Positions 453 through 61,293 of a stretch of 64,000 nucleotides of DNA are shown one piece after another. The position numbers and the translations under genes were made by a program. Position 1 is the first letter of the stretch. Each line of letters begins with the position of its first letter. Source of the stretch: Psammoneis japonica (Eukaryota); the NCBI GenBank assembly GCA_008632985.1, contig QPGO01000182.1, positions 1 to 64,000 on the forward strand. Direction: 5' to 3'. The notes beneath the pieces are model-generated. The model ran no database searches and was not told the DNA's origin. It worked only from the letters and a program-made list of their open reading frames with translations.

Positions 453-905
453 AAAAGGTGGGGATACCAGGGGGGGGGGGGACAACATCATATCAGTGGA
501 AAATAAGTTGGCCTCTAGAATCAAACTGCCGAGGGGAAGGGCAATCAAGAAGTACAGCAACGAGCTCTCTAGTACTTCTAGCTGATAAATGTAGATTATA
601 GATGCCGCATTTAGGTCCAACCTTACACAGCTGCCATTAAGAAAACTTACTGTTGAATAAAGGAGAAGAGCTAGGATAGCAGGATTAGAGATGCACTACT
701 ACGTCGCAGGTAGGTGGAAACACTGTCGAGATTACGGATGGACAGACGGACGGGCGGTTGAAGGTAGAATCGGAAAAGCTCAGAAGCCTGCCTCCGAAAG
801 CGCGACGACTTCAGAATCTTTTTTTTCTGCTTTCAACGGCAATGACAACTAAACAGTGCTGGCATTGTTTCCTCTTGTCTTCTTGAACGCACCTCTTTTG
901 AAACC

Positions 906-1700
906 ATGGGCGCCAATTGGAATCTTAGCGGATGCTGCAATAGCGAAGAAATCATCTTTCTCAGCCTCTTTGGTGGTTACCTCGTAATCAATTATTTGTT
1001 ATGGAATACATTTATTCTCAAACCAATGAAGCTGATTGCCGTGTTTGTACACGAAATGTCTCATGCCACGGCGTGCTGGATGACGGGTGGAACTGTGAAT
1101 AAAATTGAAGTACAAACCGATGAAGGTACGAGATTCTGCTGAACGTATGGCTTACTATGAACATGTACGCTCAAGACTAAAATTTGTTCTGCATATTTTT
1201 TTCTCTCTTAAGGCGGCGTGACAAAGTACCAGGGAGGGTGTCGCTGCATCATTATTCCAGCAGGTTACCTTGGATGTTCCTTTTGGGGAATGGTGTTTGT
1301 GGTGATGTCGGGAAACAGGATTTCAGCCACAATTGCGGCTTCGCTCTTTATATTGGCAATGATTGTTTCCCTGCGGTTTTCTCCCAACTCAACCATGGTT
1401 TGTCTCAACTTGGGGTTTATCGTTATTACTCTTGGTTTCATATTTCTGGAGTATTTTGTTGTCAATCCTATTCTGGAATACGTTACGCTTTATTATGGTG
1501 TCTTTATCGGAAGCTTCTCGATCTATGACATTTACGATGATTTGATTACGCGTACCGTGGAAGGAAGTGATGCTCATGCGTGTCATCAGTTGATACCTTG
1601 CTGTATTCCTCGTTGTGTTGGAGTGCAGTTTGCACTGGTGGCCTTTGCATTTCTGGGTCTGGGAGTATACCTTGCACTTGTCTGGATGGTAAGCACCTAA
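906..1700 (+). CDS. Peptidase M50B-like membrane metalloprotease (intron 1126-1212)
   Basis: HEMSH (HExxH) motif; splicing joins EG to GVTKYQGG...PAGYLG; several TM segments; YDIYDD...SDA motif. Confidence 0.85.
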
Positions 1701-1824
1701 GTTTGCTACGTTGGTGTCTTATCAACTTTGATCCGTTGGGGCATGTGTAAAATTAGGTGAGGTACTAGTAGCTTTAGTTCTGTAAAGTGTACAAGGCGAC
1801 TTCTGTATAGAGTATAGCATACAT

Positions 1825-2988
1825 CTACCAATTCGATAGCTCAGTGACTGCTTCCTTCAAATCCTGATTCTTCATGCTGTCTTTGTCTGCTGCATCTCGG
1901 TAGTCTCTTGGATGGCCGTGCCCAGGAGCAATCATATCCCAGACATCTGCATCCTCCACCATTAGTTTCAGCGTCTCGGATTGAAGCTTTCGACCCCCTT
2001 TATTATATCGGGGAAATCCAGACATGCGTCCACCGTTGCGGGTACTGTAAGCATACGTATCACCGGTGAACAGCACTCCAGGCGATCCCTTTCTCAAGAG
2101 TGAAAGAGATCCCGGCGAATGTCCAGGTGTGTGCCAAATGACAAAGTCATCGTCCGGCGAAACGTCACTTCCATCCAATGCCCACTTTTTCAAACCCTTG
2201 TCGTCTTTTCCTTTCAGCAAAACCTCTACATTCTCAAGCTCCGTGTCACCAATCCAGTTGTAACGCCCCAAATCGCCATTGTGAAAGATTCGTTTCAAAT
2301 TGGGAAACTCAGACGCCCACTTGTCATGGTCGTCCGTGTCATCCACGTGTGTCAAGAAGAGAAAGTCCGGTCCCTCAGGACCCGTCAAGGACGTGACGGT
2401 CCGTTTGGCTGCTGGACTGAATTTCGGCGTGTCCACCATGACCCACACCTTTTTACCTCGAAACATTCCAGATGACAAATATGGCGTAGCACCGAAACTT
2501 CCTTCATTGTGATGTCCAGTATAATACACGTTTTCCGCAAACGGTCGGGGAAATGGCAACTCGAGGCCATTGACTTTGGGAGACAATGCCAACGATTTGG
2601 ATAGCTCCTGCTCCTCCTGGGTCAGAGACGGCAAACCCCGATGATGCCGTTGAGCCTCCGTTTCGACTCGAATGGCCGCCACAGGACAGGCCGACAGTGC
2701 GGCTCGTGCCTTTTCCAATTCCTCTGCATCACCCGACGGTTGGTGGTGTACAATGTGTGCAAAATCGCTTGGCGCACGCCCAAAGACGGTCGGTGCAAAG
2801 TTGGAACACGCGGCGCAATTGATGCACTTTTCATTCACGTACAAGACGCCCTCTACATTATCTTCCAATCGTCTCGGAGCCGCCGCGAGACGTGTCGACG
2901 ACGAAGTAGCCGTGTTTGGCATGAACCCGTCGACGGATCGAACTTGCAACAGCGTCAAGGTTATAAGAGACATGATTGTTGTCTTCAT
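1825..2988 (-). CDS. Ferredoxin-domain / metallo-beta-lactamase fold protein, probably plastid-targeted
   Basis: CINCAAC...CPVAAI ferredoxin motif; THVDD, HTPGHSPGS, LFTGD and PGHG MBL motifs; signal peptide followed by VDG-FMP. Confidence 0.85.
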   Translation of the reverse strand: MKTTIMSLITLTLLQVRSVDGFMPNTATSSSTRLAAAPRRLEDNVEGVLYVNEKCINCAACSNFAPTVFGRAPSDFAHIVHHQPSGDAEELEKARAALSACPVAAIRVETEAQRHHRGLPSLTQEEQELSKSLALSPKVNGLELPFPRPFAENVYYTGHHNEGSFGATPYLSSGMFRGKKVWVMVDTPKFSPAAKRTVTSLTGPEGPDFLFLTHVDDTDDHDKWASEFPNLKRIFHNGDLGRYNWIGDTELENVEVLLKGKDDKGLKKWALDGSDVSPDDDFVIWHTPGHSPGSLSLLRKGSPGVLFTGDTYAYSTRNGGRMSGFPRYNKGGRKLQSETLKLMVEDADVWDMIAPGHGHPRDYRDAADKDSMKNQDLKEAVTELSNW

Positions 2989-3491
2989 GATTGCCTCGAC
3001 AGATGCTTGCTCTGGATATGAAATGCGCCTCGTTAATGAGGAAACGAGAATATGAGACCAGTAGGGATGTGCGTTTCCAGTGAGTTCAGTGAAGATGCTC
3101 TTCGATCATCATGAAGTGGATGAATGAAGAATGAAGTGATGCAATGTTGTGGATCCAGGATGGTGTCAGCGCGCAGAATGTTGCAGAACGAAAAATCGAA
3201 CAAAATCGAACAGAAGAGAAGGTTGAGACCCTACCTATCTTCGAGCGCAATTGTCCGTACGTGGTCCGGCACAAAACTCCCTCCGACCTCGCGGACCTCG
3301 ACCGCTCCGACGCGATGGTGTGACCACCATGACTGTGAGCCTGTGAGCACACCGCAATGCCGGTGTCCAATAATCATCGTTTCTCTGTCTAGCCTACTCA
3401 ATGTTAGTCGTAAAGCATTGAGTTTTGAAAAAAAGCTTTGTTCTGCTTTTCTCTACCACGTCACGAAGAAATCGCTGTGGATTCCGACACG

Positions 3492-4290
3492 ATGAACACA
3501 TCATCGTTCATGTTGCAGCTTCAATCACGAAGATGGAGCAGATTTTTCTTCATTGTCTTGATTACAATACTAAACTTGATTGTTGAGATGGAGGCATTTT
3601 CATCGGGAATGAGAGCTCAGAAAAGATGGATGCGTCCGAGGTCGACAGTTGTGTTGTTCAAGAGTCGAATAGAAAGAGTCGGACCTCCACCTCCCGACAT
3701 GGAAGATCCAATACCAGAGCCAATTATTATCGAGGAAGAAACTGAACCTGATATGGAAATTCCAGTCATGTCCCTGGACGAATTGCTCAAGCCCTCTACC
3801 ATGTGCAATGTAAATCAAATGGGGCCGACAGCGTTGGCCTACATTGGCGACGTTGTGTTTGAACTCTTTGTTCGTTCTCGATTTGTCTGGCCAACAAGAC
3901 GAACTGCTGATTTACAGCAAAAGGTAGTGTCTCTTGTACGAGGTGCGTCGCGTTACTGATACCGTTGTTGGGAATAGCCAGTCGTAAACATTACGTGACG
4001 ACTCACTCGGTACGTGTTTTGTATTGTAATGTCCAACTCTATCAGCCGAGTATCAATCACAACTTTTGAAGCAGCTGCTAGAATCGTTTGACTTGACAAA
4101 TGACGAGAGACAAATAATAGCTCGAGGAAGAAACTCATCAACCGTGTCGTCAAAGAATCGTAGAAACGCCTCAGCCTACCAGGACGCAACCGCGTTGGAA
4201 GCACTCGTGGGCTACTTGTACATTACAAATCAAGCGAGACTTGAGGAGGTACTGAACTGGATTTATGTTCATTTGGATACCGATGATTGA
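3492..4290 (+). CDS. Mini-ribonuclease III family protein (intron 3943-4045), probably organellar
   Basis: ALAYIGDVVFELFVR; splicing gives VRAEYQS; RGRN and YQDATALEALVGYLY motifs; hydrophobic N-terminus followed by EAF. Confidence 0.85.
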
Positions 4291-4721
4291 CATGAGAAAG
4301 TTTAAATCATTGTTTAACTTCACTTGGGGGTGTTCTAACGTTAGCATCCTAAGCCCATGTGCTTTCAGATTTTCGCTACCTTAAGATTGTGCTCCTATAC
4401 CTTGCAGCCGGAGTTGTCTTTGCAATTGGCTATGTGGGGAGTAGTCCTCTCTACTGCTAGAATATGGTACTATATCTAGATTAGAGGTACAGTAGAAGTA
4501 GCTCTCTACTCTCTAGTAGAGCTAGCTACTTCTCTACTCTAATTCGGACAACGAGACAGGCAGACAGGAGACGTTTTGGCGCGAGCTTAGTTTCGCGCGA
4601 GTTCCATGCCGAAGCAAGATCTGCCTGCTTTTCGTTGCGGTCAGTCGAAGCCACAGAGCCATTAAAGTTATTGAATATTTCGAAAGTGTAAAGGCTCAAC
4701 CATATACCCGTTATATACATT

Positions 4722-6018
4722 ATGCGACGCTTGTGTAGCTCATCAATGAGTTCCTTGATCGTTATTAGTTTGGCTTGTCTTGTTTGTAGAACTTCTTCTC
4801 TTTTCTTCGCGGCCAACAAACCAAAGATTGGACGTGTCCAAGCTGGGCCCATGTAAGTACGCGATTGCAATGATTTTCCTTCTCGTCATGCTGCTCGGAT
4901 TGATTCAAAGGTTGTGCTTGTTTTTCTTCGCAAAAAGACAAATCAGCAGTCTCGGTTGCGGAACATGGAGCTGGGGCAACCGTTTGCTATTCGATTATGA
5001 TCCGTCTCAAGATGAAGAAATCTTTGGCGCGTATCGAGCAGTAAGAGATGCTGGTGTGACAATATTTGGTAAGCTTAATATGCCTCTGCAGGTTAAATCC
5101 CTTTCTCCTTTTGGTAGCTCTTCTCACGCACTCTTCTTTATTTGAGTTATTTCAGACACTGCAGACTCGTATGGAACATTTGATCTCAATGGAAGAGCTG
5201 AAAAGCTTCTTGGACAATTTGAACGCCGCTATCAATCAGAAAAGAAAGAATCCAATCCCAACTGGAAGCCCACTCCAGACACAGAACAGCAGGTGGCGAC
5301 AAAATTTGCACCCTATCCATGGAGACTCACGCGTGGTAGCCTAGTAAAAGCAGCTCGCGATTCGTTGGAGCGGTTGGAGCAGCCAAAGTTGGCCCTTGCT
5401 CAGCTCCACTGGTCTGTCTCAAAATATCTACCGTACCAAGAGACTCAGCTTTGGGAAGGAATTGCTGATGTGTATGATGAGGGATTGTGTGATGCTGTTG
5501 GTGTTTCAAATTATGGACCAATTCAATTGCAAAAGGTGGCGCGACGCATGAAGGAACGGCAAGTTCCTCTCGCGACAGCACAGATTCAGTACTCTCTCAT
5601 GACATACAAAGAGTGCGTCCCCATGAATGAAGTGTGCGACGATGAAGATATACGCTTGATTTCCTACTCTCCCTTGTGTCTTGGTTTGTTGACGGGTAAA
5701 TACAATCTCGACAATTTGCCCCGACAAGGGAATCCCCGTCGGCAGCTGTTTCGAGAGTTGCTCCCTGGTGCCAAGGACCTGTTGCAGACGCTGGAAGCAG
5801 TTGCAAAAGATGCTGGGAAAAGCCAAACACAGGTTGCGATTAATTGGGCAATATCGAAAGGAACGGTTCCAATTCCTGGAGCAAGAACTCTTGAGCAAGC
5901 TCAGGAGAATCTTGGTGCTACCGGTTGGTCCCTCAGTCCTGGAGCTATCGACGAGTTAGAGCGAGCAGCTTCAAGTGTCGACAAACCCATGATTCAAAAC
6001 ATATTTCAGACCAAATAA
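4722..6018 (+). CDS. Aldo-keto reductase (pyridoxal reductase-like), spliced
   Basis: LGCGTWSWGN, DTADSYG across an intron, ATKFAPYPWR, AVGVSNYG, YSPLCLGLLTGKY, PIPGART; introns start at ~4853 and ~5069. Confidence 0.85.
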
Positions 6019-7012: not shown

Positions 7013-8514
7013 ATGAATGATAGGACAGAGAAGGCGGCTTCTTTGAGGTCGCCAGCTCTTAAAGAAAAATGGTCCAGAACCAGTAGCACGGTACTGGATG
7101 TATTCGATGAGAATGAAAAGCCGTCGAACGAAAAGCATGAAAAAGCAAAGGGCGTCGTCGACCGTAGGCAATTCTTCAAGCAAATGCGTCAAGAGTCCTC
7201 ATCTAGCTGGCAACCAGAGAATAATGGAGGGCAACAGATAACACCAAGCATCACAATACCGCAAGCCTTGTTGGATGTCAGCCGGCATACTACTGCATAT
7301 AGCGTTGGTACGGCGGCCGAGGAAGAAGATGATCAAGCTAAATCTGAGTTTTCGATGGGTGATCCTCTTCACGAAGATATTCTTTTGATCGGTCGGTGGC
7401 GGAACCGCGTCGGAGCGTTCATAAACTGTCGGATATGCCAGTGCATTTTAATGGGTATGATCATCATCAACGCCGGAATACTGGGAGCCCTGACCTTCTT
7501 GTACGACAACCCAGGGGCCTCCAGGGTATTGGAAATCATTGATTACACATTCCTTGGAGTTTTCACGCTCGAAACTTCTCTTCAGGGGTTCTATTTGGGA
7601 CCCGTACGTTACTTGAGAAACCTCTGGCTGTTGTGGGATTTAATCATTATTATTCTGTCCTGGGCTTTCTTGTCGTTCCCGTCGATCTCTGTCATGAGAT
7701 CATTTCGGATTTTTCGGATTTTTGTTCTCTTTTCGAGATCCGAGTCTATGCGGGTTCTTGTGAAGGCAGTCGGTCGGACCCTCCCAAAGATGGCATCCAT
7801 CTGGGTCGCGCTGCTGCTGTTCTTTTACACCTTTTGCGTTCTATTCACGGTAAGACAATGTCTTTTAGCCGTCTCCCTAGCTGCTGCTACTTTCTCACTT
7901 TTGCTTCCATGTATCGTTGTCTTTTGCAGGATCTCTACCATGGCTTATACGACGATAACTACTTGGATTACGACTACTTTGGAAGATTGGATCGCACCTT
8001 TTTGACACTCTTCCAATTCATGACGTTAGACTCTTGGTCGAATGTCGTCCGCCAAGTTCAGGAAGCACGTCCTGCTGCCTTGATTGGTTTCTGTATTTGG
8101 ATCATTATTACGGCCTTTTTCGTCATGAACCTCATGGTGGCCGTGATTTGTGAATCCTTGATTGAGATTAACAACATGAGAGACAAGAAGAGACAAAACA
8201 AAATGCTCAAGCAACAACGTAACTTGATTTCGGCACAGACGGAAGAGCTATTGGAAGAAACTCACGAAGTTGTCAAGCTGCAGAAAGAGATGCTAGCAAA
8301 TCAAGTGATTATGCAGCAGCTTTTGGTGCAAATTGCTACGCAAATGTCGCAGCAGAACAACCCGCAGACATCCTTAGCACCCCCTGATCAAAACAATGCC
8401 GAGCAAGTAGTAGGCGGAAAAGGAGCACTTGCGAGATTAATGACTGATGTCGCAGATGAGAGTGATGACGAAAATGTTCACTCCGAAGAACCGCCTCGGA
8501 GCACGGAAGACTAA
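7013..8514 (+). CDS. Single-domain voltage-gated cation channel, EukCatA/BacNav-like, paralogue 1 (intron 7850-7929)
   Basis: 6-TM Ion_trans layout; S4 RSFRIFR; pore FLTLFQFMTLDSWSNVVR; S6 MNLMVAVICE; C-terminal coiled coil. Confidence 0.85.
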
Positions 8515-9321
8515 ATCCACACGCCTGATTTTTCATCCTCGCTTCCTGTTGCAGGCTTGCACTTTTTTGTTGAACACAACACGTTCTGATTCTCAATTCT
8601 CAATTTATGCCTTCTCTGTTGTCACCATGTGCCATCGTCCGGTTAACAACTGCCTCGTGGAGTACATCATTTTGTAGTCACAGTTAACCTTGTAGTTCAC
8701 ATTTTTTTGCAGTTTACACGTTGAAGAGCTAAAGCAGAGACGTGAGGGACAGCAGAATGAGGCGTCAATGGAGCTGCCGGAGCGGAGGGATAGAAGGAGG
8801 GGCATTTCGTAGATGGGGCAGGGGGGATTCATGCAAAAGGCAGAGAGGAACCAAACAGCATGGGTGGAAAGATGGTGCGGGATGCTGTGGCTCAAGGGTG
8901 CAGGAGTGGTGGGGGAGGGAGGACTGGTGTGTGCTGCCACAGCGGCAGCAACTGGCAAGTCAGTTCCAGGTGAAATCAGCAGAAGGGAGGAGGGACGCAG
9001 GAGAAGCAAGGGCATGAAGGAGGGCAAAGTGGAGAGCATCAGAGTCATGGAGGTCAGAGGAAGAGGGCCAGGGAGGCCTGGACTGGGAGCAAGTGGCAGA
9101 AAGCAAAGAAACAAAGAGGAAGCAGAAAAAGAAGAAGCCAAGAACACCCAGGTGACCAACAGCAAAAGGAACAAGGAAGATCCTGTTGCTGTTGTTGTTG
9201 AGGGAGTCAACAGCAAGAGAGCCATCAACTGAGAAACAGGATGGTGCAAGGAACTTTTGCCCCATGCCAATGTTGCACTGCAACTCCTTTGTGGATGCAG
9301 AAGCAGAGGGGGCAGGCAGGC

Positions 9322-9597
9322 TGACAGAAATTGAAGGCAAATGGCAAGAATTCAAACAACAACTCCTTGCTGCTGTCTAAACAGCAGATGAGTCTCCGCT
9401 CAGAGACCGTCACAGGAGCCGAAAGATGTGCAAGTCAGTGTGGTCGGGCCACTGTTGTCATTCTTGTGAGCCTTGTGGCTCGAAAGCAAACTGCATCACG
9501 CGCGAACACGCGGAACTAAAGCACACAAAACTGTGCGCGGCAAACCAAACAGTGCGCGACATTTCGCGCGCACCCAAATCCTGTTCAAATCCTGTCA
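9322..9597 (-). repeat. 3' LTR of Copia element
   Basis: Ungapped direct repeat of 16721-16996; TGACAG...CTGTCA ends. Confidence 0.95.
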
Positions 9598-12047
9598 CTC
9601 CCCAGTTTGCTTGAGGAGCCACAGAAACAGATTCGACTTCGGATGGAATGAAGTTCCAGAACATGAGGGGGCAGAGAAGGTCCCAGATTTGGGAGCAACC
9701 CCAATGCTTGCTGAGAATGTCAGCAGGGTTGCGGGAGCCTTCGATGAAGTGGAACTCAAGGCAACCAGAGGCAATTGCCTCAAGCACATGGCGGAACAAT
9801 GGCGCGGTGTGTCGCTTGTGTAACTTGGAGTGCGGGATGGTGGCACTGTCTACAACCGACTTGTTGTCACCGAACATGCAACTGACGTTACGGATCGGGA
9901 CACCAAGGTGGCGCAGGGTGATGCGCAGGTCAACAATCTGCTCAACACAAGTCCTTGCGGCAACAAATTCAGACCCGCAGGTTGCAGTCTCCACGGTGGC
10001 TTGCTTCTCAGAGAAACCAATCAGCCGGGAATTTGTTGAGGAAGTGGAGCATTCCCATGACAGAGCGTCCGGTGAGCATGCAATGGTGCAAGTTTGCATC
10101 GACGCAGTGGGTGGCAGTGACGAACTTGCCAAGGGGCGGTGGAGCATCCTTCGGGATCATCTCTTCTGCTTCGCCGCACACGGAATGCACCCACTCACAG
10201 GCCGGAGCAGGGAGATCCAAACAGCTGGGCTCTTCCATGCGAACGCGGAGAGCGCCGTGTCGCATCTTGGAGAGGTGCCCACAGACGCGTTTGGCACGAT
10301 CCAAGTGGCCTTGACGGGGTGCAGCTCGGAAGCTGGAGAGTGACATGACGGCCGTGGCAATGTCAATTTGACCAAGGGACACTGCCCATTGGAGTGAACC
10401 AACAAGAGACTGGAACTTGTGAATGCCATCGGGCTCCAGCAGTTCGGAAGTGTCCAGCTCGGGGTGGTCACCCTTCTCCAGAGGTGACAGGGCATTGGTG
10501 GCAGGTTTCTCCCCAAACAGTCGGGTGCAGCTGTCGACCATGCGCTCGATGCACTTGCGTGGAGACAGGCACAAGGTGCCGTCGGGATCCCGGGAAAAGT
10601 CGCAACCCAGATGGAACTCAATGGGTCCCGTGCCCTTGAGCTTGAACTTGCACTTTTCCATGAGAGTGTCGACGAAAGATTGAGGGTCCTTCACAGCAAT
10701 GGCAAGGTCATCCACATGAACGGCAATGCATTCACAGTGGTCGCCGTTCCTGCGCATCCAAATGTCGGGTTCGGCGCGGCAGGGGAAGAAGCCTTCAGCT
10801 GGCAGGCAGTTGGCGAAGCGCTCGTGCCAGCGGAGACCGGAGCTGCGCAGTCCACACAGGGCCTTGTGGATGACAAGGATGTGTCCTTCGAGTTTGCCAA
10901 ATTCGGGTCCGGCTGCAATGTAGAGCTTCTCCTTGGTGGTGGCTTCAAGGTGGGCATTGCCAATGTTGGTGGCCCATGTCTCCAACTCGTTGAGTTCGGC
11001 CAGGAAAATCATCAGCCGAAGGCCACGGAGGGAGACTGCTCTGGAGTGGACACCATCGATGGGCACGTCCGTGAGGTGCCCATCAGCTGCGAGTCGTGCC
11101 TTGTGGCGACCGTCGTGTTTCACGTCGCACACCAGGTGCGCTCGGATCTTCTTGTGTCCAGCAGGAGGAGTGGAAGACTCGAAGGGCCTGCAGTCATGGA
11201 AGACTTCGTATTCCCCGAGTTGGTCCATCTCAAGATTAGTTGCGTCTCCCCATTTGTGGTTGCCGTTGCGTTCGTCTGGTGACATGGCGTGTTTGCAGTT
11301 CCGGGGAACTTTGCATCCGCACTTGCAGCGAGGTGCAGTGCGGAAGGAGCGAAGCTTGGCTTGGTTGGCCATGCGAAATGGCTTCTTCTGGTGCCTCGCG
11401 ATGGTGCGGAACCGCTTCCAGCCATCAGCGTCGAGAAGTCCGTTCTCTCGTGCATGGATGGCGCAGGTGACGGGGTCATCCTTGGCGATGATGGCAAGAG
11501 GCTTGGACGTGATCTCCCCACTTTCCCATTCAAGCATGATGTTGTAGCTTGAGCCTTTCCAGGTTGGGTCATGAGGCTTCAGAGGTCCTTCGTGTGACAC
11601 GATGCGTCGAAATTTCCAAACAGCAGTGTCTTCGTCTTCTTGCTCAATGTGATTCATGATGTCGTTGCAGGCAAGGACTTCCTCGTATTCATCGTTGTTG
11701 ACAGAGCAGACAAACTCAGTGAGCTCAGGATTGCCACTCACTTTCCATTCGTGGTCTTCGACGGCCTTGACGATGCGAGCTCTGTGGCGTTGTCCGTCCT
11801 CTTGTGGCTGCATGAGGAAGGTGCGTCTGATGATGTCTTGCGGATCGAAAACTGGCATCTTGGGTGTCCTGATCTCCCCATCAGGAGAATCGACGGGGTT
11901 GTCGTCATGGCGAGATTTGATGATGGGTTCAGGTGGCTCCCCATCAGGAGGATCAAGACGCAGGTTTCAAACGGCAGGATCGGTGGCAGCGGATCGTACG
12001 TTGGACCAGCAGAGGATCTTCTGAGTCTCGTCAGAGAGAATCTTGAA

Positions 12048-12437
12048 GACGCGTTCCAGGTCTAGGTGGGACCTCGCACTGCTGAACTGTGACATCGACA
12101 GTTTTTTGAGTCTCGTCGTATGTCGCGCACGTAGATTTCTACGTGATTTTTTTGATGTTTTGTGTCATTTTACGGTGCACTTGTTGAGTGATCCGTCCAA
12201 CAACTTTTAACATTTTTTGTTACAGCGCGATTCTACAATGTCTTAAGAATCGCGTAGGGCAGGCGAAGTTGCAAAAACGTCGAGTGGCAAGAGGCACAAT
12301 TGTGCCACAAACTTGGCCGTTTGTTTGATGTTGAAGACAAATGTGTCCATTGATTAAATTCTCGTACTACGGAGCTCGCACGTAGAATTCTACGGGCCCA
12401 ATGTCACACGGAGTCCCACCTAGGGCTGGAACGCATC
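12048..12437. mobile_element. 390-bp MITE inserted into the Copia pol region
   Basis: TIRs GACGCGTTCCAGGTCTAGGTGGGAC / GTCCCACCTAGGGCTGGAACGCATC; 4-bp TSD TGAA (12044-12047, 12438-12441); removing it restores HQMTFKILSDETQ. Confidence 0.9.
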
Positions 12438-12764
12438 TGAAGGTCATCTGGTGGCCGACGTGCTCAGCAATGCCAACAAAGCGTCCACGCAACTCACGGG
12501 ATTCGGATGGCCAATCGGAGTCATCGAGGTGGAAGTGCACAGGTTCCCACCAGTGAAAGCGAAGCAATGGGCTGATGTCCGGGGTGGAGCCAGTGAGAGT
12601 CTCGAGGGGTGTGTGCCAGTGGAGACGTGGGGACGCTGCATGGTTGAGTGTGAAGCACACGCACATGAGCGCCAGCAGCCATGTGTGGGCAGGCGAACCG
12701 AAACGATCCATGACAGTGTTCGCCATGTGCTTCACAGTCTGGCATTGACGCTCGGCAAAGTTTT

Positions 12765-13108
12765 GGTGTTGCTGGTGAGGCTCACTTTGCCAGCTGGAGA
12801 TGAAGAGGGCTCGTAAAATCCCGATCACCTTGTTGCTGATCTCAACTTGAGCACGGTCGCTAATGAGTTTGGATGGGGCACCATGCTCACGGATCTGATC
12901 CTCGAGTGTGTTGACAAACTCCTTGTCCGTCTTGGTGGTGTTGCTGGTGAGGCTCACTTTGCCAGCTGGAGATGAAGAGGGCTCGTAGAATCCCGATCAC
13001 CTTGTTGCTGATCTCAACTTGAGCACGGTCGCTAATGAGTTTGGATGGGGCACCATGCTCATGGATCTGATCCTCGAGTGTGTTGACAAACTCCTTGTCC
13101 GTCTTGGT
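12765..13108. repeat. 172-bp tandem duplication within the Copia integrase
   Basis: 12765-12936 and 12937-13108 differ at only two positions by eye; TKTDKEFVNTLEDQI...SEPHQQH is encoded twice. Confidence 0.9.
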
Positions 13109-16100
13109 GCCACAGACGTCAGTGACGGTAGACTCGGTGCCAACAAACAGTTGGGCACTGGTGCAACCAGAGTCGACGGCCGGGGTGTCGGCACAAATGG
13201 TGTCAGTGGCAACAGGCTCGTTGCGGCGGTGCACATTAAGGGCGGGGTTGGGTGATTTGCAGGCCTTCCTAAGGTGTGCGCCGGCGGGCATGCGGACGCA
13301 CTGCGTGGTGCAGTCAAAAGTACGACGGACCGCATCGGCAGGCAGGAAGCCAAAGTGAGGCCGAAGAGACTCGAAAGGGGGGGTCCTTGGGCTGCACAGT
13401 GCGCTCCGGGGGCGGCACGTCGTCGTCCTTGGGGTCAATCGCGTGCAGATGACACTCGTAGAATGCGTCGTCGTTTGGAATGAGGTGATCATCGAGGGCG
13501 GACGTGTGATCGGCAGACAAGGAAGTGGACATGATGGTCTCGTTGACAACGACACGATGACGGCAGTTGCCGCATTCGTCAAATGGGTTGGCAGTGGGAT
13601 CGTCCTGCAGGTCAGAGATCGCGTCGCACCACTGGTCGTCGTCAGTGGCAGAGTGATCGAGGACGGAAGGATCCCATGTGTCATCACCGGTGAGGATGAC
13701 ATGGGGCAGGGTGTCCCATTTGGCATCAGTGCAAGGTCGCATGGCAACACAAGGCAGGCCGCCCTTGATGTCAATGGGGATGACATGGCCATCAGGAGTG
13801 GCAATGCGTTGCAAGCCGTTGGGCACCTTGACAGAGCGATCGTTGACATCCTGTTTGTGCCACTCGAGCTGGCCGCAGGAATGGATGGTCTTGCCCTTGC
13901 CCGTGCATGCGTGCTGATGGAGGATGGCGACGACGGGACCACGCTGGGTCTCAATGACGGCACCCACGGTGACAACAGGGATGTCCACCAATTGATGGTC
14001 GTCAATGCCCTGAACGTCGACTTTGCGAGAGGTGCATGCAATGACGCAAACGTTGTCATCAGCAATGCCGCCGTTGGCCCCACGATCGACTGGAGCACCA
14101 GTGCGTGTGGAGCGATGAGCAGAGGCAGAGCAAATGACATTGTGGTTGTTGACGCGACGGCAAGTGCGGCCGTTAAGTTCCACGTCATCGGCAGAAGCTG
14201 GCGGGGTAGAGGGAGCGGCGGATGGCCCCGGTCGACTGGCGTTGGGGGCTTGGTTAGGAGACAACAGATGTTGCAGATCACCGGGTGGCAGTGGCTTGCG
14301 CTTGGTGAGGTGCGCCAGGATGGGATCATCCGAAGTGGCATCCACACTTGGAGCGGAGTCACCAGAGTCAGCAGGAGTCGTGTTGGACAAGTTGACATCA
14401 CCGTCACTCCCAAGGCATTGGTCGTGAAGGTTGGCCGCAATGGACTCATGGCAGTTGCTGGCTTGCGGGTTGCGGGGAGGCGGACGAGAATGCTCAAGGA
14501 TGATCGCCTTGGAGGAATGGGGCAACGAATCCCAAATCCGTTGGTGGTCGGGAGGGAGACGTTTCCATTGGTCGCCGGTGAGGCTGGGACCACGGGCGCA
14601 GGCAGCATTGGCCTGAAGGACGTCAATGTCGCTGTCAATGTCGCAGAACACATCGTCGGACGGTTCCTCGGAGTGGACATCGTGTGCGCATGTGGCACGT
14701 CGGGGAGCTCGAGGTGTCATCTTGGGTTGAAACGTGCTGTCGCATTGAGCCGCTGCGGAGAGGAGCAAGCCACAGCATTGATCGCATGTGAGGCTCTTGC
14801 CACTCTGCGTGCGATGCTGATCAGCTTGGCTCTTGACAGCACGGAGTTCCTCGACAGGGTGTGCGGCATTCTCGAGCATGGCGTGCTTCTGTCCTTCAGA
14901 GAAGTGGTCACTGGCTGGGATGAGTGCCTTGCACTTGCGCAGCTGATCTTGCCAATGAAGGATGAACCCGTGGGTCGGACCTTTCCAAGTGCCATCACCA
15001 AGACGTGTGGTGGTGAGGTGCGTGAGCAAGGTGGAGGACTCAACAGATGCGTGGGTGGAGGCGAGCGCATGCTCAGACAAGGCACGGTGGACGGTCTGGG
15101 CATCAGAAGACCCCACATTTTTGCGAATGAGAGCCTTGCCCTTGTCGGTGAGAAGAATGCGTTCAAAGACGGCGAACATGTGCTTTTGCTGTTCAGCAAA
15201 GAGCAGTTTGTCTTCGGGGCTGGTCGGTTTGTAAGACGAGTCTAGAATGCACTCAACGTCTTGGGCACGGGCTTGTGCCACAAGTGAGGTGTGCCAAGTG
15301 TGCCACTGCTTGTCGGATTTGAGAGCCGTGAAAGCGGTGGGGTCACGCTTGATGCCTTGCTTGAAGTCTCACACCGGGTCGCGTGCCTTGGTCGGGTTGG
15401 TGACATGCGGAGGTGCGAGGGGTGAGCTGCCGACGGACACAGAAGACATGTGGTTGGGGCTGAGGCGGCAGGCAAGGAACTCGTCATGCGCGAACAATGA
15501 GGAGTCATTGGCAACGTCAAGACCTTCATGTGCTTTGACAATGTGCAGACCAATTAGAGCTGCTAACATGTTCTTATAACCGCGGGGCAAAGGGATCACA
15601 TTGGTGCCGTTGTTGCACTCAAGTGAGTCGATTTGGGACGGCATGAACGCGAACAGTTCTTGATGCGAGTCCATGCCGTCTTGGGTCAAAGCCAAATGAA
15701 GAGGGCTCCCAGCACCTTGGGCAAGCACGGTTCCAACAACGTGCTCGAAACCATCGGTTTGTTGCTGACGAGTGAGAACCATGGTAGACAAAAGTGGTGT
15801 CAGGACAAGCAATTCTTGTTGGGAAGCGAAGGTGGACTTGAAACTTGGGTGAGAATGGACTTGACTTGAAACAGACTTGACTTGAAACCTTGAACTGCCT
15901 TAAAATCAGAAGTCGCCGGGCTGTGCCATCCCGTTCGTTGTCAAGTGCTAAACTTCCCATCTGGTCCGTAGAGTTGTGCCGGCACGTCCGAACCCGCAGC
16001 TGGCGGTGCTTTGGGTTGCTTACGAGCGGAGCAGCGGGTTGTAAACCCCTGCAGGTGAGCTGACCAGAGGTGGACAAGACCCCCGAACCGTTCTCATTTT

Positions 16101-16720
16101 ATGTCGGTTGGATTTCCCGATCAGGCTGGCCAGTTGACGCAGGCGCCAGGCGCTGTGGACGAACGAACAAACGCGGGAAAGCACCCTCGCCCCAACGTAG
16201 GCTGCAATCACGGCCACTTGCTCTCACAGTCGTCCTCGTGGACCTGGCAGAACTGTGGAGCACCAGTGGTCCGGGGTGGATCAGGCACAATGGACTCGGT
16301 GTGCTTGCAGAGTGGCAGCAAAACTGCAGTCCGAAGAGTGGGTGCAAGTTCTTGGCCGTGAAGATGTGTGTGTGCACACATGTCTTCAGCAGACAAAGAT
16401 CCTTGAACATGTGGGGTTCTTGACCGTCAACCGATGAATGGGCACATCAAGGGATGAGGATCAAGGATGGACTTGGATGTGACCGTTGATGCATGTCTTC
16501 AGCAATCAAAGGCAGCACAATCAATCCAGACATCCAGCGGCAAGGAGACTTGACGGTGACGTTAAATTCCTGCCGATGCCTGGCATTGAATGCGCGCAGA
16601 CTTGCCGATGCATGTAGAGTGCACACGGAGGTCCACGCAGAATTGAGGTGGCGTCGTCGGTAAATCAACAACAACGATGGCGGTTGCTCAATGGGTTGAC
16701 AATGAGCAAGACTGTCAATC

Positions 16721-16996
16721 TGACAGAAATTGAAGGCAAATGGCAAGAATTCAAACAATGACTCCTCACTGCTGTCTGGATGGCAGATGAGTCTCCGCTC
16801 AGAGACCGTCACAGGAGCCAAAAGACGTGCAAGTCGGCACAATCGGGCTGCTGTTGTTGTTCTTGTGAGCCTTGTGGCTTGAAAGCAAACTGCATCGCAC
16901 GCGAACGCGCGGAACTAAAGCACACAAAACTGTGCGTGGCAAACTGAACAGCGTGCGACATTTCGCGCGCACCCAAATCCTGTTCAAATCCTGTCA
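16721..16996 (-). repeat. 5' LTR of Copia element
   Basis: Ungapped direct repeat of 9322-9597. Confidence 0.95.
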
Positions 16997-17923
16997 CAGG
17001 CAGGCCTGGAGGAGAGCAACAAGGGGCTTTGGGTGCAGCAACATCAGCGGTGATGCCATGTCACACTCCAACTCTTCATCCACCAACCATGGGCTGGATT
17101 TTTGGCACCCGCTGAGAGAGCAAAAGCTGGTGGTCGTGTGAAGGCAAGCCGTGTGTGCAATCAACAAAATGGTGTTGTGAATGTGCAAAAGTCTCGCCAC
17201 TTGTTGTCTCGCTCAATTGCCGTGCAGATGCAGCCAACTCACACTGTCAATCCTCCGACAAATCCAATGTCATGGTTTCATGTCGTCAAACCCACTTTGG
17301 CAATGCCAATGACAAGAGGAGCATTTTTCAAGACTTTGACAAAGCAGCTCCAATGTGAGCAGCCAAGTGTTTTTGAGTGGGAGAGGGCAGGGCGTGGGGC
17401 GGATTTTGGAGTGAAAACGCAGAGTGAAGCTGGTGTGCTGTTCAAAAGAAGCAGTCAAACAACGTTCACAAAGTTGCACATTGATGATGCTCTCCTGCAG
17501 AACAACAAATTCAGGCAATGGAAGTGCCCCCTTGCTGCTTGCACATTCGCACTGTAGTCTACTACCTACCGTACCATACACAGTGTGTATGAATAGAGAG
17601 GTCGCGCGAAGACGATGCATCAGAACACACCATCACCCGTCGCCAGTCGGTCACGCAGTCACCACCGAATCCACCAAGCACGTTGCACTGTCGTAGACTT
17701 CAGAGCACGAAAGCGAAGCCATGCCACTCCCTCTGCTGAAGTGCCCTCTGACACTGTTTTCTACTGTCTGTGATTGATCTGCCGACATTCAAGTGTACCA
17801 GCACTGGTGCCGTCCGACACGACTTCAATTCAATTCAATCCTATACATTACACAACTACTTTCAGCTGCTGCTGCCCAGTGGGGGCTTTGAATCGCCTGA
17901 ACTTTCCTTCAATCCACGAGCGA

Positions 17924-21641: not shown

Positions 21642-23188
21642 ATGATGGAAGAGACAAAAAAGAAGGTGACTTTTCTGCCCGATCAATACAGTCGATCAAG
21701 AACATGTAAAACTGTAAGTCTCGACGACGATTACGATGATGCAGGCACTACCTGTCTTGACGAGAACACCTCGAAGGAGGATCGCGAAGCAGATAACCCG
21801 CAAGATCGTAGAAAGCAACTGACTCAAATGAAACCTTCATCCTCTAAGAATGAGCAACAAAATACGTCAGAAGGGGAACAAGCTGCGATCATCATACCCC
21901 GAGAAATGCTGAGACACGCGAGTAATAGCACTATGTGTAGCGACGATGACAATGCTACAGCACCTTCTTTCTCACTGGGCGATCCTCTTCATAATGATAC
22001 TTCAGTAATTGGCCGTTGGCGTAACCAAGTAGGCGCCTTCATCAATTGTCGGGTGTGCAAGTGGACATTAATGGGCATGATCTTCGTCAATGCCGCAATA
22101 CTTGGGGCCCTCACCTTTCTGTATGACAACGCAGAAGCTTCTAGAGTATTGGAGCGCATAGACTTGGTGTTCCTTGTCATTTTCACTTTTGAGACTACGC
22201 TTCAGGCGTTCTACTTGGGCCCCATACGCTACTTGAAAAACCTCTGGCTGTTGTGGGATTTCATCATTATCACTCTATCTTGGGCTTTCTTGTCGGTACC
22301 GTCCATTTCTGTTATGAGATCCTTCCGAATATTTCGGTTGTTTTTTCTTTTTTCGAGAGCTAAGTCTATGAGGCATCTTGTGGAAGCGGTCGGTCGGACC
22401 CTGCCAAAGATGGCGTCAATCTGGGTTGCCCTTCTGCTGTTCTTTTACACCTTCTGCGTTCTCTTCACGGTAAGCACTATCCAATGTCCTTCTCCATTCC
22501 AGATTTCAAACTTCTATAATTACTCACATCTCTGTTCTTAAAGGATCTTTACCATGAGCTATACGATGAAGACTACTTGGACTACGACTACTTTGGAAGA
22601 TTGGATCGCACCTTTCTGACACTCTTCCAATTCATGACGTTGGATTCTTGGTCAGATGTGGTCCGTCAAGTTCAGGAAGCACGTCCTGCCGCCTTGATTG
22701 GTTTCTGTATTTGGATCATTATTACGGCCTTTTTCGTCATGAACCTCATGGTGGCCGTCATTTGCGAATCTTTGATAGAACTTAACAACATGAGAGACAA
22801 GAAGAGACAGAACAAAATGCTCCGTCATCAACGTAACTTGATTTCGGCACAGACGCAGGAGTTATTGGAAGAAACCCATGAAGTTGTTAAGCTACAGAAA
22901 GAGTTGTTAGCAAATCAGGTGGTGATGCAAAAGCTATTGGTGCAAATTGCTACTCAGATGTCGCGGCAAGACAACCACGAGATATCGTTGAATGCTAAAG
23001 ATAGCACGTCTCGTGGGAAGGGGGCCCTTTCAACACTTCTATCCGAAATCTCCGACACTAGTGATACCGAGCGCCATCTTCCATGCGATGAGCCACCCGA
23101 CCTTTCACTTGACGAACCACCAGAAGTCCTAAATCCCGAGGGCATGATGTTCTATACAAGACCGGCTTTACAATTTTCTCGAAAGTGA
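21642..23188 (+). CDS. Single-domain voltage-gated cation channel, EukCatA-like, paralogue 2 (intron 22470-22543)
   Basis: Same architecture and intron position as 7013-8514; pore TLDSWSD. Confidence 0.85.
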
Positions 23189-23449: not shown

Positions 23450-24810
23450 AACGGTGGACATGAACATGATGCTCGATGACAGATGACTCCAACACATGAG
23501 TCTGTTGGCTCCATGGGATCGTCACATTGTATGATGAGTGTTGCTGCAAGAGTTGGAGATGATGTTGGGTGTTTCGTGTTGCTCCAATGGTGTGGGTTTC
23601 ATTGTCACCATGTGGATTCTCATCAAAAACTGGGTGCCTGACAAATGTTGATGTGTTGGTTTGCATTGCAGAAGGAGATTTTTACACCTCATCTCACCCT
23701 TTGAAGCTCAGAGAACAGAACCCCTGTTGTCAATGTGACTTCCACCATTCTGCCCACCAAGCCCAACACTCTTGTGTTGGCTCCTGCAGTTGGGTCCCTC
23801 TCAAATGCTCCCCCCAAGCATTTCCAAAAGATCTTTTCCCAAGTGAGCCCCGTGTCTCCAAGATCCAAGAGCATCAACTCCAAAAATTGCAGCAGCAGCA
23901 TCAAAGTCAAAGAGCATTGCTGCAAGTTTGGCTCTTGGGACTTGGCAAATGCTGCAAAGCATGTGCCTCACATGTCCAGTTCTTGTGCATCCAAGAATGT
24001 GTGACATTGACATGGCCACTCAGCAATTGTTCACTGGGTTGAGTGTGAGCTGGCATGGGTGTGTGCATTGTGCACTCCATGACTTCTGCTCCACTTCTCA
24101 AGTTTTGAGTTCACAGAACACAGCTGGAATTTGCCAGCAGCAGCATTGCATTCTGCAAAGTGGAGATGCTCCAAGAGGCAGCAAAAGACCATTTGGGAGG
24201 TTTCAAACCTTCACACAGAACTGGGAAAGGAAAGTCCTCCACAAAGACACCATTCTGTTTGAGCAGTGTGTGACTCCTCCTCCGACAAGAGTCACAGTGC
24301 TCAAGCTCTTGACGTAATGTGATGCAACAGTGCCTGCCTGAGCTGCTGACAACAAACATTTTCTTCTGCTGCACCTGTGTCCAGTTTCAACAGCAAGCAT
24401 GAGCTGCCTTTTGAGTGGGCACAGGTGGAGCCCTTGCCTTGTTTGGCATTTTGGGAGTCAGCAACCACCAACCAACTTTTTGGTGTCCAAGTCAGTGGGT
24501 CTGGAGAAACGGGCCGCTGAGCCCGCACAAACAAGGCCCCACACAAAATGTTTCAGGGCTCAGGTTTGCCACTCTGTCCAAAGGAAAACAAACAGAAAAG
24601 AAAGAAAGAAAGAAAGAAAGAAGTTTGAGAAACACAGAACGCCTCTGTGCGCTGGTTTGGAGTTGCACTGCATCCCCATTGCTGATCCAGGTGCGGGTGC
24701 CGCTGTCCCTCGTGTTGTGCAGTCCTACAGTCTCAGTTGACAAGATTGGTTTGACGGACTGTGCAGGGGTCTCGACACAAACATTCACACTGCACTGGTG
24801 AGAGCATTGT
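23450..24810. repeat. Degenerate repeat remnant, depleted in TpA and CpG
   Basis: Abrupt compositional shift with CA/TG excess; no recognisable intact ORF. Confidence 0.55.
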
Positions 24811-25144
24811 GACTTTCGATTTTCGATTCATAATTTCTTTTGACTCACTGGACTAAATCCGGGCGCGCCATTTTTTCAGCCGTCTGGCCGTCTCTAGCTA
24901 TAATAGCAGCCGTCGCTTTTTAGTCTTTTGCCTCTCTTATATCCCTGGTCCGCGCATTCACGTTGCGCGAAAGTACAACGTGGTTTTGTGCTGCTGCTAA
25001 CAATTAACAAAGCCGGTCATTTGACACCTGACCTGACCCAACTAGTTAAAGCAGGCTGTTTGTTTCAAATTTCAAAGAGCAAAGAGTCGCATCGAGATAT
25101 ACAATCGCTGGTTAAACGCTCAACTCACCTTTGGTCAACACACA

Positions 25145-25800: not shown

Positions 25801-26043
25801 TATGCTTCTACGTACAAATCGTTACAGGCACTGAACCGTTGGAAAATCGTTGAAACCTGAAAGTCTATAACAACTCTCATTTCGGATGGTTCCGGTGTTG
25901 CTCTCTCGTCACATACAGTAGATGTTTGTTAATTGCACAATCACCATCGAGTTCAAACGGAACAATTCCTGGGCTCACTCGTCGTTGACCAAGAAAAATT
26001 AGATCTGATCTAGCCACTTTCAAAAAAGAAATGACACAACTTA

Positions 26044-26268
26044 TTTGAAGCAGGCAATACAATTTAGGCTAAGGGACAAGGATAGCTTGACCTGCTTTAG
26101 CCTTTACTGGCGAATCCGCCAGCGTCGTCTCGAAGATAGTTTGCCACTAGCAGAAAAAAATGGCGCAATTTTGAAGCAGGCCATAGAATTTAGTATAAGG
26201 GACAAGAATAGCTTGACCTGCTTTAGCCTTTACAGGCGAATCCGCCAGGGTTGCTAAGATAGTTTGCC
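26044..26268. repeat. Two-copy direct repeat, period ~126 bp
   Basis: TTTGAAGCAGGC...ATAGCTTGACCTGCTTTAGCCTTTAC..GGCGAATCCGCCAG...AAGATAGTTTGCCA at 26044 and 26170. Confidence 0.85.
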
Positions 26269-26354
26269 ATAAGAGTGTCAGATAATTCAACAGACTAGCC
26301 CACCGCTTCCCAATTCTTCAAAGGCGTAAGCTACTCCTTTTCCTAGAGTCACGT

Positions 26355-32219: not shown

Positions 32220-34680
32220 AGATGTCATGTGCTCTGACAATTGAATGAAGAGAGCAACAACAAGAAGCAGAGTTTGAGAGGAGAGCACAAAAAAAGAGAA
32301 CCACACCAGTGGTTCCAAGTTGATGTCACTCTGCCGGCTCCTGCCAGGCAGCCACAAAATGCAAGGCTCTCAACCAAGTGCCAGCACCCTTTCTTGGTTG
32401 GCACATCACATTCTTCAACAATGACAGCAACCCCAATGGGATCTAAGACATTTGTTGCAGCAAAAGCTGGTTGTCAACAAATGAGCAGAGGCACCAGCGC
32501 AGAGGAGCAGCAGGAGCAGCAGTGCAGCGCTTGCCGCCAGGCCTGTTCCAGCTCCAGGCGATGCTCACAGGTTGGATTCCCATCACTGGCCAATTTTTGA
32601 ATTTGGCACAATGAACTCTTTCAAAATCAGGTTTTTCCCAAATCAAAGGGTGCACACAAAACTCATGTTTTGTGTGCACCCACCTTTCGAAACGATCAAA
32701 TTTGAAGAAGTTCAACGTGCCAAACTGCAAAAAATCGGCCTCTCGCATGATGGATTTTTCATCACCTGGGGCTGGAAAATCCACCAGCACACTTCTAGAC
32801 AGGCTGCACTTTGACAAGAAAAGTTGCTTCACAAAGGCAACATTTGCCAATCAGGCTGTCACAAACAACACGCAAGTTCAAGAGAGTTTTTGCATGTGGC
32901 AAGGGGCAGACCCTCATGGCAGGGCCACTTTTGCAGCAGCACAAAATCCAACAACCTCTGGCACACACTCAACTTTGTGCATGCATGTTAAAACTGCAGT
33001 GCAACACCTGCATGACATGCCAGCGGGGGAGGGGGGTGCACATGGCTGCTGACAACCACTGCATTTGGGACTGTGCAAAAATCTGTGCGCACTTGTGTGG
33101 CATGACTTGGGATTATTTTGTGCACTGGCTGGAAGCGCAGTTGTCAGGCCATCCATTCAACAACCAAAGTTTTTTCATGCAGCTGCATTCTCTGATGCCC
33201 ACAGAAAAACCACAACTGTGCGTGCATGTTTTCCAAAAATCTTGAGCATCATGGAAAAATCATGCAGCAGCATCACACAAAATTGAAGTTGGTTGGCTCA
33301 TTTTGACATTGAAGATGAGCAGCATGCTCATTGCCCAACATGAATGAGCTCTGCAGCTCACACACAGATTTTTTCAGCGCCACATCATGCTGCACAAAGA
33401 ACACAAAACCCACCCAGAGCCAGGGTCCATCTTCATCATGGGGCCCCACAGTCTGCAGGAATTTTTGCATGTGGTGCTGAAACATGCAGCCTGCACATGC
33501 AAAACTGGTGCAGTTTCTGTGACAAAAAATCAAAAAAAGCCTGGTTTGCAAGGCAGCTCTGGTGCAAAACCTGTGCAATTGGTCCCCATGCATTCACGTT
33601 GAACTCCACGCATTTCTGGGGGTTGCAGATCCCTCCACATTTGTGGGGTCCCACGATGAATCTCTCTTGTTCTTGAGACACACGTGGGACAGTCATGCAA
33701 TGCGCACACAGATGAGGAGGTTTGTGTGCAAACAAGCTTTTTTCAAATGAGACATCTTGCAGCAAGCACAGGGCAAAAAAGAGAAAGATGAAAACATCTG
33801 GGCTCTGCTCCTCTGGCACACACCTCATGCCAATTTTGGATGTGGAGCCACCACAAAAAGTGCGCAGCAAAACACAGCTTCCCCAGGAGGCTCTCTTCTT
33901 GGTGGGGTGGGCACATTCATTGGCACCTTGTCATGAAGAGCAGCAAGGGCATGCACACACACAATTCTTGTCCAATGCAATGACTGAATGAAATAACTTG
34001 CTTTTTGACCTTTGACAACAACAATGCAGTGGCAGCAGCACAAACAAAATGGGGCTTCAAGTTGACACCCCACACTGCTGCCACTTCTTGGGGAACAGCA
34101 AGCAACTTCCAGGAGTCTTGGAAATGATTGGGGCAGGCACAACAGATTTGTCAATTTGTGCTGTTGGGTGCACAAAAAACGCACTGGAATTTTGTGTGAA
34201 CGGAGGTTGCCACAAGCGCGCTGCCAGAGCCATGTTGCACATGGTTGTTTTGGCTGCAGCTGCAGCAAACCATGCATTTTTGCACTAGATTTCCTGATTT
34301 CTGCACAAATTTGCTTTGGTTTCTAAAAAACTTCTCATTTGATTTGAGCTCCCTTCCCAGCCAAGAACCCTCAGCACATTTTCTGTTCTGCAGCATGTGG
34401 GGGACGAGGAGAGACAAAAGCAACCAAAAAGTGGTGTGTGTGCAGCTGAGCACACACAACAAGCAGCAGCGGCAGGAGAGACCACTTTGTGAAAAAAAAA
34501 GTGTCATCAGTTTTTCTGTCACAGGCAGATCAAAGTTGACAGTGGACAAAGTGTGTGCAAAAGCAAGTCTCACACCTGGGCATGATTTACCATGCCAAAA
34601 AAAATCCATGACCGATTGGGGCACAGCATTCCGAATCATCATCGCGTCAGACACGGTGACGTTCTGATCGCTGACGCGTT
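32220..34680. repeat. Degenerate repeat remnant, depleted in TpA and CpG
   Basis: CA/TG-saturated block bounded by normal-composition DNA; family not identifiable. Confidence 0.6.
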
Positions 34681-59777: not shown

Positions 59778-59813
<36 letters not shown>

Positions 59814-61289: not shown

Positions 61290-61293
61290 GCAA

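Follow-up and report, generated by a model that had tools for sequence, protein, structure and literature searches.

Here we describe a stretch of 64,000 nucleotides (positions 1 to 64,000 of contig QPGO01000182.1, assembly GCA_008632985.1, Psammoneis japonica; referred to below as the window), which carries on its minus strand a Ty1/Copia retrotransposon with long terminal repeats (LTRs) at 9321-16997. In this element the dinucleotide TpA has largely vanished, and tyrosine residues that are conserved among related polyproteins are replaced by cysteine or histidine. The pattern very probably results from a DNA-level, TpA-specific hypermutation of silenced repeated DNA in the diatom nucleus, by which TpA is turned into TpG or CpA. 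A preliminary description of the sequence had drawn attention to the exchange of Tyr for Cys or His between 9610 and 15782, a span that agrees with the polyprotein remnant delimited here (9608-15791), and had called it a recoding. The pattern itself is genuine, its direction being set by homologues that retain Tyr; functional recoding it is not, but mutational decay of a dead, frameshifted copy.

Excluding a 394-nt insertion, which is treated separately below, the element contains 41 TA (observed/expected ratio, o/e, 0.117) and 458 CG (o/e 0.81), compared to o/e values of 0.585 for TpA and 0.977 for CpG in the rest of the window. Depletion is restricted to TA and CG and enrichment to TG and CA, with AT, AA, TT and GC at background level (for ApA, o/e 1.13 vs. 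1.14 in the background). Since the conversion of TA to TG or CA raises G+C, it also accounts for the elevated G+C content of the element (0.557 vs. 0.470). Within the reverse transcriptase (RT) region the TpA o/e is as low as 0.05, as compared to 0.33-1.12 in 80 related metagenomic loci, and 112 of 253 1-kb segments of the 64-kb window fall below an o/e of 0.2, while none of 1664 such segments does so in the related loci. ATA/TAT contexts are found at 5 of the 41 surviving TA sites, where about 18 would be expected; the expectation is derived from other, related elements, so that the figure is suggestive only and gives a hint of a possible flanking-base preference of the process. The plus strand of the element also shows more G than C, but this skew was discarded as evidence, since values for 42 intact relatives span -0.176 to 0.113 and include the coding-strand value of the element (-0.156).

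A mild deficit of TpA is general, as its background o/e shows, and this could be taken to mean that no special process is at work and that the composition stems from the codon or dinucleotide preference of the family, from gene conversion biased towards GC, or from errors of sequencing or assembly. We consider this scarcely credible. The related loci hold no comparable values, the residues lost include catalytic Tyr, and both the neighbouring host genes and the insertion within the element itself have normal TpA; gene conversion, moreover, would extend beyond TpA and act against the change from CpG to TpG.

At the protein level, all eight peptides quoted in the preliminary description were recovered in minus-strand translations, namely CECIAVHVDDL, KALCGL, GNAHLEA, VCDVKHDG, RCKCGCKVP and RKCIERMVDSC in the open reading frame (ORF) 10008-11966, and ETATCGSEF and KHWGCSQIW in ORF 9458-10156. 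The Tyr residues that had been expected at these sites are borne out by the consensus of 26 homologues (YEYVAVYVDDL, KALYGL, GNAYLEA, KYKYGF, KKYIEKM, ETATYGSEF, KHWGY), except at the VCDV site, where the homologues carry Phe (LVFDVKHDG). For column counts, 60 homologous sequences with 54-62% identity to the window copy were used. Among the 326 columns conserved to at least 80%, Tyr is replaced in 16 of 18 (by Cys in 9, by His in 5, by Trp and Phe in one each), while non-Tyr residues are kept in 275 of 308 columns overall and in 67-100% per residue class. A threshold of 50% yields 28 Tyr-majority columns, at which the window copy has Cys 15 times, His 6 times, Phe 3 times, Trp once and Tyr 3 times. 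The residue present at the 21 Cys or His columns occurs in none of the 60 homologues at 16 of them and in a single homologue at three, with 6 and 10 homologues sharing it at one column each. The active-site motif of the RT, YVDD, reads HVDD. Accordingly, the element's five ORFs, including an overlapping alternative frame, contain 0-0.96% Tyr, as compared to 3.15-4.50% in 42 intact related polyproteins.

Transitions from TA to TG or CA turn Tyr codons into Cys or His codons, and a count of substitution classes against the homologues, of the kind that the preliminary description had called for, places 19 of the 49 residues replaced in the 326 conserved columns in this class, as single steps. The remaining 30 comprise 12 changes from CG to TG or CA, 3 other transitions, 7 transversions and 8 replacements that need more than one step; wherever the genetic code permits several routes, a residue was assigned to a dinucleotide class by preference, whereas for Tyr the assignment is unambiguous. 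Three of the 120 metagenomic RT homologues listed (P0110, P0042 and P0118) are likewise poor in Tyr, each with a Cys/His pattern of its own (P0110, for example, has Tyr at 3, Cys at 7 and His at 12 of 25 Tyr columns). As their patterns differ, the same process has operated independently in other environmental relatives.

The assignment of the element to Ty1/Copia follows from its RVT_2-type RT and its domain order together with two LTRs and a target-site duplication, all of which are present. Collinear tblastn matches to intact polyproteins give the order gag-protease-integrase-RT-RNase H, with the integrase upstream of the RT. On the minus strand, the gag-protease remnant occupies 13467-15791 (frame -3, delimited by tblastn with intact related polyproteins; Tyr 0.44%), the integrase remnant 12430-13471 (two frames, interrupted by a tandem duplication), the RT 10014-12098 (Pfam RVT_2, E 2.4e-20) and the RNase H remnant 9608-10015 (frame -1, after a frameshift at about 10014; Tyr 0%). 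The copy is dead, as is evident from shifts of the reading frame near 13470 and near 10014, the tandem duplication and the insertion. No further copy of the element was found within the window by blastn or tblastn, and a scan of viral_contigs with the RT as query gave no match.

The timing of the mutations can be read from the two LTRs, which are identical when an element integrates. The 5' LTR (16720-16997, minus strand) and the 3' LTR (9321-9598, minus strand), of 278 nt each, are now 89.6% identical, and an AGGCAGG direct repeat at both outer junctions of the element represents the target-site duplication, the intactness of which argues for a single insertion event. An apparent extension of the LTR to 319 nt, obtained with the sequence reduced to purines and pyrimidines, was rejected as low-complexity chance similarity. 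Between the two LTRs, 29 of the 278 positions are different, in every case by a transition, and there is neither a transversion nor an indel. At eight sites, which account for 16 of the differences, TG of one LTR stands opposite CA of the other, as independent, strand-wise mutation of an ancestral TA (or CG) would be expected to produce; one site has TA vs. TG, ten have CG vs. TG or CA, and at two an A/G difference immediately follows a mutated TA on its 3' side (TAA to TGG). These last two are the only differences in the 134 LTR columns outside TA, CG, TG and CA. Since the LTRs were identical at integration and differ now, the mutations struck the DNA after integration. A simple two-copy model of the LTRs, which yields indirect estimates, gives about 16 ancestral TpA with a loss of about 91% per copy and about 24 ancestral CpG with a loss of about 29% per copy, corresponding to rates of about 300 times (TpA) and 47 times (CpG) that of non-target sites. 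The preliminary description had regarded CpG as largely kept in the element; given the o/e this stands, although in view of the loss in the LTRs it does so in a relative sense only.

The same comparison bears on the possibility that a transcript was edited by an ADAR- or ADAT-like enzyme before reverse transcription, so that the copy integrated in a mutated state. Retroelements do pass through an RNA stage, and a preference for U 5' of the edited A is mentioned in the discussion of a recent preprint (10.64898/2026.01.13.699255). Both LTRs have a single template at integration, however, and they show independent outcomes at the eight TG-vs-CA sites. The two strands are hit about equally, with 15 Cys and 6 His in the window copy and the opposite excess in P0110, and the non-Copia flanks as well as other domains of the window are equally free of TA. 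Editing of the transcript is thus extremely improbable as the source of the pattern, and editing of RNA or cDNA before integration in the manner of ADAR or APOBEC was rejected on the same eight sites and the lack of a consistent strand bias.

The TpA-poor domain around the element (D1, 8811-17554; 41 TA in 8350 nt without the insertion, TpA o/e 0.10, CpG o/e 0.75) has sharp edges and extends beyond the LTRs, TA-free sequence reaching about 510 and 557 nt further. Both flanks, 8811-9320 (TA 0, CpG o/e 0.09) and 16998-17554 (TA 0, CpG o/e 0.40), are older repeated relics into which the Copia element inserted. To assess copy number, contigs from four runs of one sample were mapped on 8500-17900. 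Summed depth rises from 61-74 in the bins at the two ends (8500-8813 and 17606-17900) through 608-5315 in the flanks that lack TA to 38,000-188,000 in the element. As the depth drops to single copy at the borders of the TpA-poor domain, its edges are those of the repeat; with host genes showing normal TpA, the loss is confined to selfish DNA and sharply bordered. The family is thus highly repeated, and its copies in one of the runs (X1) vary at 504 transition places vs. 65 transversion places. Among the best-supported 40 of 581 variable places, the window has TG or CA at 17 where others have CG, TG or CA at 9 where others have TA, and CG at 4 where others have TG or CA; the others are one transversion and 9 other transitions.

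Four further domains of this kind are found in the window: D2 (23531-24830; TpA o/e 0.035, CpG o/e 0.21), D3 (32220-34695; 0.048 and 0.26), the 18-kb D4 (36492-54494; 0.041 and 0.18) and D5 (61715-64000, continuing past the window end; 0.075 and 0.86). D2 to D4 are the more decayed domains of the preliminary description, confirmed here with TpA o/e values of 0.035-0.048 and CpG o/e values of 0.18-0.26. All five domains are sharp-edged, with a TpA o/e of at most 0.10 throughout, while CpG ranges from 0.18 to 0.86, a more than four-fold spread. Since TpA is nearly gone in D1 to D5 whatever the state of CpG, its loss saturates before that of CpG, in line with the order that had been proposed. Nor is TpA loss a by-product of CpG decay, as the values of the element and of D5 demonstrate, and two relatives elsewhere have the reverse pattern (L017, TpA o/e 0.59 and CpG o/e 0.09; L078, 0.58 and 0.10). 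The two losses are thus separable in both directions.

Because the decay consists of transitions, the window was recoded as purines and pyrimidines to detect old repeats. In D4 a pair at 38552-38762 and 44142-44352 has 17 TG-vs-CA sites. A second, direct pair (61294-61552 and 63733-63999, 2439 nt apart) brackets D5; its copy outside D5, which abuts the HSP70 stop codon, has TA at 9 sites at which the copy inside D5 has TG or CA. This difference suggests that the adjacent active gene may protect the outer copy and that targeting might be chromatin-based rather than homology-based. D5 also has an ORF on the minus strand (62048-62719) whose protein family is unnamed, with 22 representatives at E up to 0.001 (best 5.6e-50) and no Pfam domain in five members; it probably encodes a protein of an uncharacterised mobile element. 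Here Cys or His stands at five of six Tyr columns, and as this element is unrelated to Copia, the process is not specific to one element family. That D5 might have arisen by tandem duplication of the adjoining HSP70 gene and subsequent hypermutation was rejected, there being no similarity in purine/pyrimidine space and the ORF belonging to another family.

That TpA loss and CpG decay share their domains would also fit error-prone repair, in which a Pol eta-like polymerase, with its hotspot at WA motifs (W, A or T), acts at T:G mismatches left by deamination of 5-methylcytosine (5mC) in methylated repeats. The A to G bias of Pol eta at WA motifs would provide the right type of change. Nevertheless, we regard this explanation as very unlikely. 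The specificity is too sharp, with ApA unchanged and only two differences in the non-target LTR columns; about 90% of TpA is lost where just about 29% of CpG is mutated; and in D5 nearly complete TpA loss is accompanied by a CpG o/e of 0.86.

Two later events within the element provide information on the course of the process. A 394-nt insertion (12044-12437) with 26-nt inverted termini (88% identity) and an 8-9 nt flanking duplication resembles a miniature inverted-repeat transposable element; it has 16 TA (o/e 0.58) and a CpG o/e of 1.28. The insertion is itself highly repeated (summed depth of 164,000-188,000 in its bins), and contigs of other copies of the element connect 12043 to 12438 without it. 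The tandem duplication in the integrase region (12764-13107, 2 x 172 nt), which causes a frameshift, has units that differ at two sites, one a CpG to TpG change and one an A/G difference beside a surviving TA, and both units retain their two surviving TA. As insertion and duplication show almost no later TpA loss, the process was essentially finished at this locus before they arose. The normal TpA of the insertion excludes a constitutive, domain-wide process and suggests either an episodic burst or a size threshold that spares short elements.

The changes at TpA, whether recorded as exchange of Tyr for Cys or His, as LTR differences or as composition, are A:T to G:C transitions. From the observed signature, polarity, timing after integration, restriction to repeat domains and ratio of rates, the following picture emerges. 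TpA, which is palindromic, is turned into TpG or CpA by an A:T to G:C change on either strand. The Copia element was struck after its integration, with about 90% of TpA removed and non-target sites left nearly intact, so that TAY codons became TGY or CAY, YVDD became HVDD, and TAA and TAG stops disappeared. Decay of methylated CpG proceeds in parallel, several-fold slower per site, and both processes together leave the old relics that lack TpA as well as CpG. The process is most likely enzymatic, and the favoured chemistry would be that of an ADAT2/TadA-type deaminase which converts adenine in DNA to inosine. As far as is known, the tRNA target of these deaminases, A34, always follows U33, which would give the TpA rule. 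Targeting by chromatin or small RNAs, activity in bursts and a role in genome defence may be part of the process as well.

Given that TpA is palindromic, a T to C change cannot be distinguished from an A to G change, and the alteration could in principle start from thymine. In that case a TET/JBP-type oxidation of T at TpA would generate 5-hydroxymethyl- or 5-formyluracil, which mispairs with G and leads to T to C changes. The two additional LTR differences fit TTA to CCA as well as TAA to TGG; 5-hydroxymethyluracil is enriched at TpA in dinoflagellates, and 5-formyluracil is mutagenic. However, no sequence feature prefers thymine oxidation to adenine deamination, and we know of no such thymine modification in diatoms. 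Oxidation of thymine is thus an unlikely alternative to the deamination of adenine.

Several observations weigh against TpA-specific hypermutation of silenced repeats as we propose it. The repeated insertion lies inside the domain and still keeps background TpA, which can be accommodated only by assuming that the process came in a burst, that the insertion is very recent or that elements below a certain length are spared. Among the 40 of 581 variable places considered, CpG-type losses of the window copy (17) exceed those of the TpA type (9). The four sequencing runs stem from one sample, from which the assembly itself was probably made, so that they provide no independent support. Ordinary divergence is also present, as seen in the 7 transversions and 8 multi-step changes among the 49 replaced residues. 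When ORFs from the remaining TpA-poor domains were compared with Pfam, in sets of 10 and 81, only chance-level rows below the cut-offs were obtained, and a word-index homology search with ORF 37066-37845 of D4 gave no match. Finally, the evidence is comparative only.

That the host of the window is a diatom is indicated by similarity of an intronless HSP90 ORF (55883-58024, minus strand), which is 89-92% identical to its counterparts in Skeletonema, Cyclotella, Ditylum, Thalassiosira and other diatoms. Further genes of host type surround the domains, among them HSP70, a mitochondrial carrier, a G-protein-coupled receptor, ion channels and an aldo-keto reductase. HSP90 and the likewise intronless HSP70 (59268-61289, plus strand) are arranged head to head about 1.2 kb apart, and the interval is possibly a shared heat-shock control region. 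The 18-kb relic domain D4, which lacks both dinucleotides, reaches to within about 1.4 kb of the 3' end of HSP90. Antisense to HSP70, a frame of 676 aa is open (59340-61370, minus strand) and matches Pfam NAD-GH (PF10712) with an E of 2.7e-123; we take this match to reflect a family that is an antisense-of-HSP70 artefact, and not a gene. Two paralogous ion-transport genes (7349-8362 and 21969-22976) flank the Copia domain, with 92% similarity when reduced to purines and pyrimidines. Over 1008 nt they differ by 105 transitions and 84 transversions, an ordinary divergence that provides a useful contrast to the LTRs. Purine/pyrimidine space also revealed a short tandem repeat at 26023-26270 (about 125 nt x 2).

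The proposed process has practical consequences. Due to the loss of TAA and TAG codons, long spurious ORFs arise on both strands in 8811-17554, such as an antisense ORF of 628 aa opposite gag (13359-15245, plus strand). Gene callers will hence predict false proteins from hypermutated relics in all six frames, and public protein collections already contain Tyr-poor "proteins" of this type (P0110, P0042 and P0118). Dating of such elements by LTR divergence would be wrong by orders of magnitude. Beyond this, diatoms, and perhaps, given the like signature in Rhizaria, the entire SAR supergroup (stramenopiles, alveolates and Rhizaria), might possess a dedicated DNA base-editing defence that acts in bursts on silenced selfish DNA and converts essentially every TpA to TpG or CpA, a view to which we give an even chance. 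If it is true, transposons would be killed faster than by deamination of 5mC, and a natural editor of adenine (or thymine) in double-stranded DNA with dinucleotide specificity would exist. A natural A:T to G:C editor at a defined dinucleotide would be of interest to base-editing research, and as diatoms are major phytoplankton for which genetic tools exist, such an editor would be approachable experimentally.

No publication that describes a specific loss of TpA from transposons of diatoms came up in our literature search. The terms "dinucleotide", "TpA" and "RIP" are absent from the available text of Maumus et al. 2009 (PMC2806351), and the lone match of "TpA" in that of PMC4504042 is the word "Tpase". 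The closest known system is that of the chlorarachniophyte Bigelowiella natans, for which Mettrop et al. (bioRxiv 10.64898/2026.01.13.699255) describe hypermutation that is specific to TpA and affects giant-virus and virophage DNA integrated into the genome. According to this preprint, de novo mutations are exclusively TpA to TpG or CpA and occur in some lines only, at about 6e-7 per site and generation and about 1000-fold over baseline; reverse transcriptase and DDE domains are enriched among TpA-depleted coding sequences, and an ADAT2/TadA-like enzyme that deaminates adenine to inosine is proposed. Diatoms are not mentioned in the text available to us, in which the term "CpG" has no occurrence.

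The two systems share the restriction to TpA to TpG/CpA changes, the targeting of foreign or silent DNA and a non-constitutive activity. The rate excess, about 300-fold here by the indirect LTR model, is of the same order as the one reported there. The near absence of later TpA loss in the insertion and the tandem duplication recalls the lines with and without activity in B. natans, albeit only as a hint. In contrast, the host there belongs to the Rhizaria and is a diatom here. The targets in B. natans are single-copy viral insertions still rich in TpA (rho 0.45), as opposed to LTR retrotransposons and other repeats near saturation (o/e 0.04-0.12) in the window, and decay of CpG in parallel, seen here, is not part of the available account. 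The evidence there consists of de novo mutations and is comparative here. If the process is the same in both, this mode of genome defence would extend to diatoms, beyond one chlorarachniophyte.

Repeat-induced point mutation (RIP) of ascomycete fungi is similar in being a fast, transition-only and dinucleotide-specific inactivation of repeats that leaves sharp compositional domains. RIP, however, changes C to T at CpA and so makes TpA from CpA/TpG and lowers G+C, whereas here TpA is destroyed and G+C raised, and this opposite polarity rules it out; the repeated 394-nt insertion, moreover, escaped. Deamination of methylated CpG is present as the slower companion, with ten CpG-type LTR differences and, in the old domains, a CpG o/e down to 0.18. 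A:T to G:C changes are nevertheless beyond its chemistry, and the two processes occur separately both ways. With hyperediting by ADAR and APOBEC, and with ADAT2/3 and TadA, the present pattern has in common deaminase-type transitions directed against selfish elements and a preference for U or T 5' of A. ADAR and APOBEC, however, modify RNA or single-stranded cDNA ahead of integration and mark one strand, while in the window integrated double-stranded DNA was changed on both strands. The diatom window thus adds a second SAR lineage for a process described only recently, with LTR retrotransposons as the target, TpA loss near saturation, and an order relative to CpG decay that can be measured.

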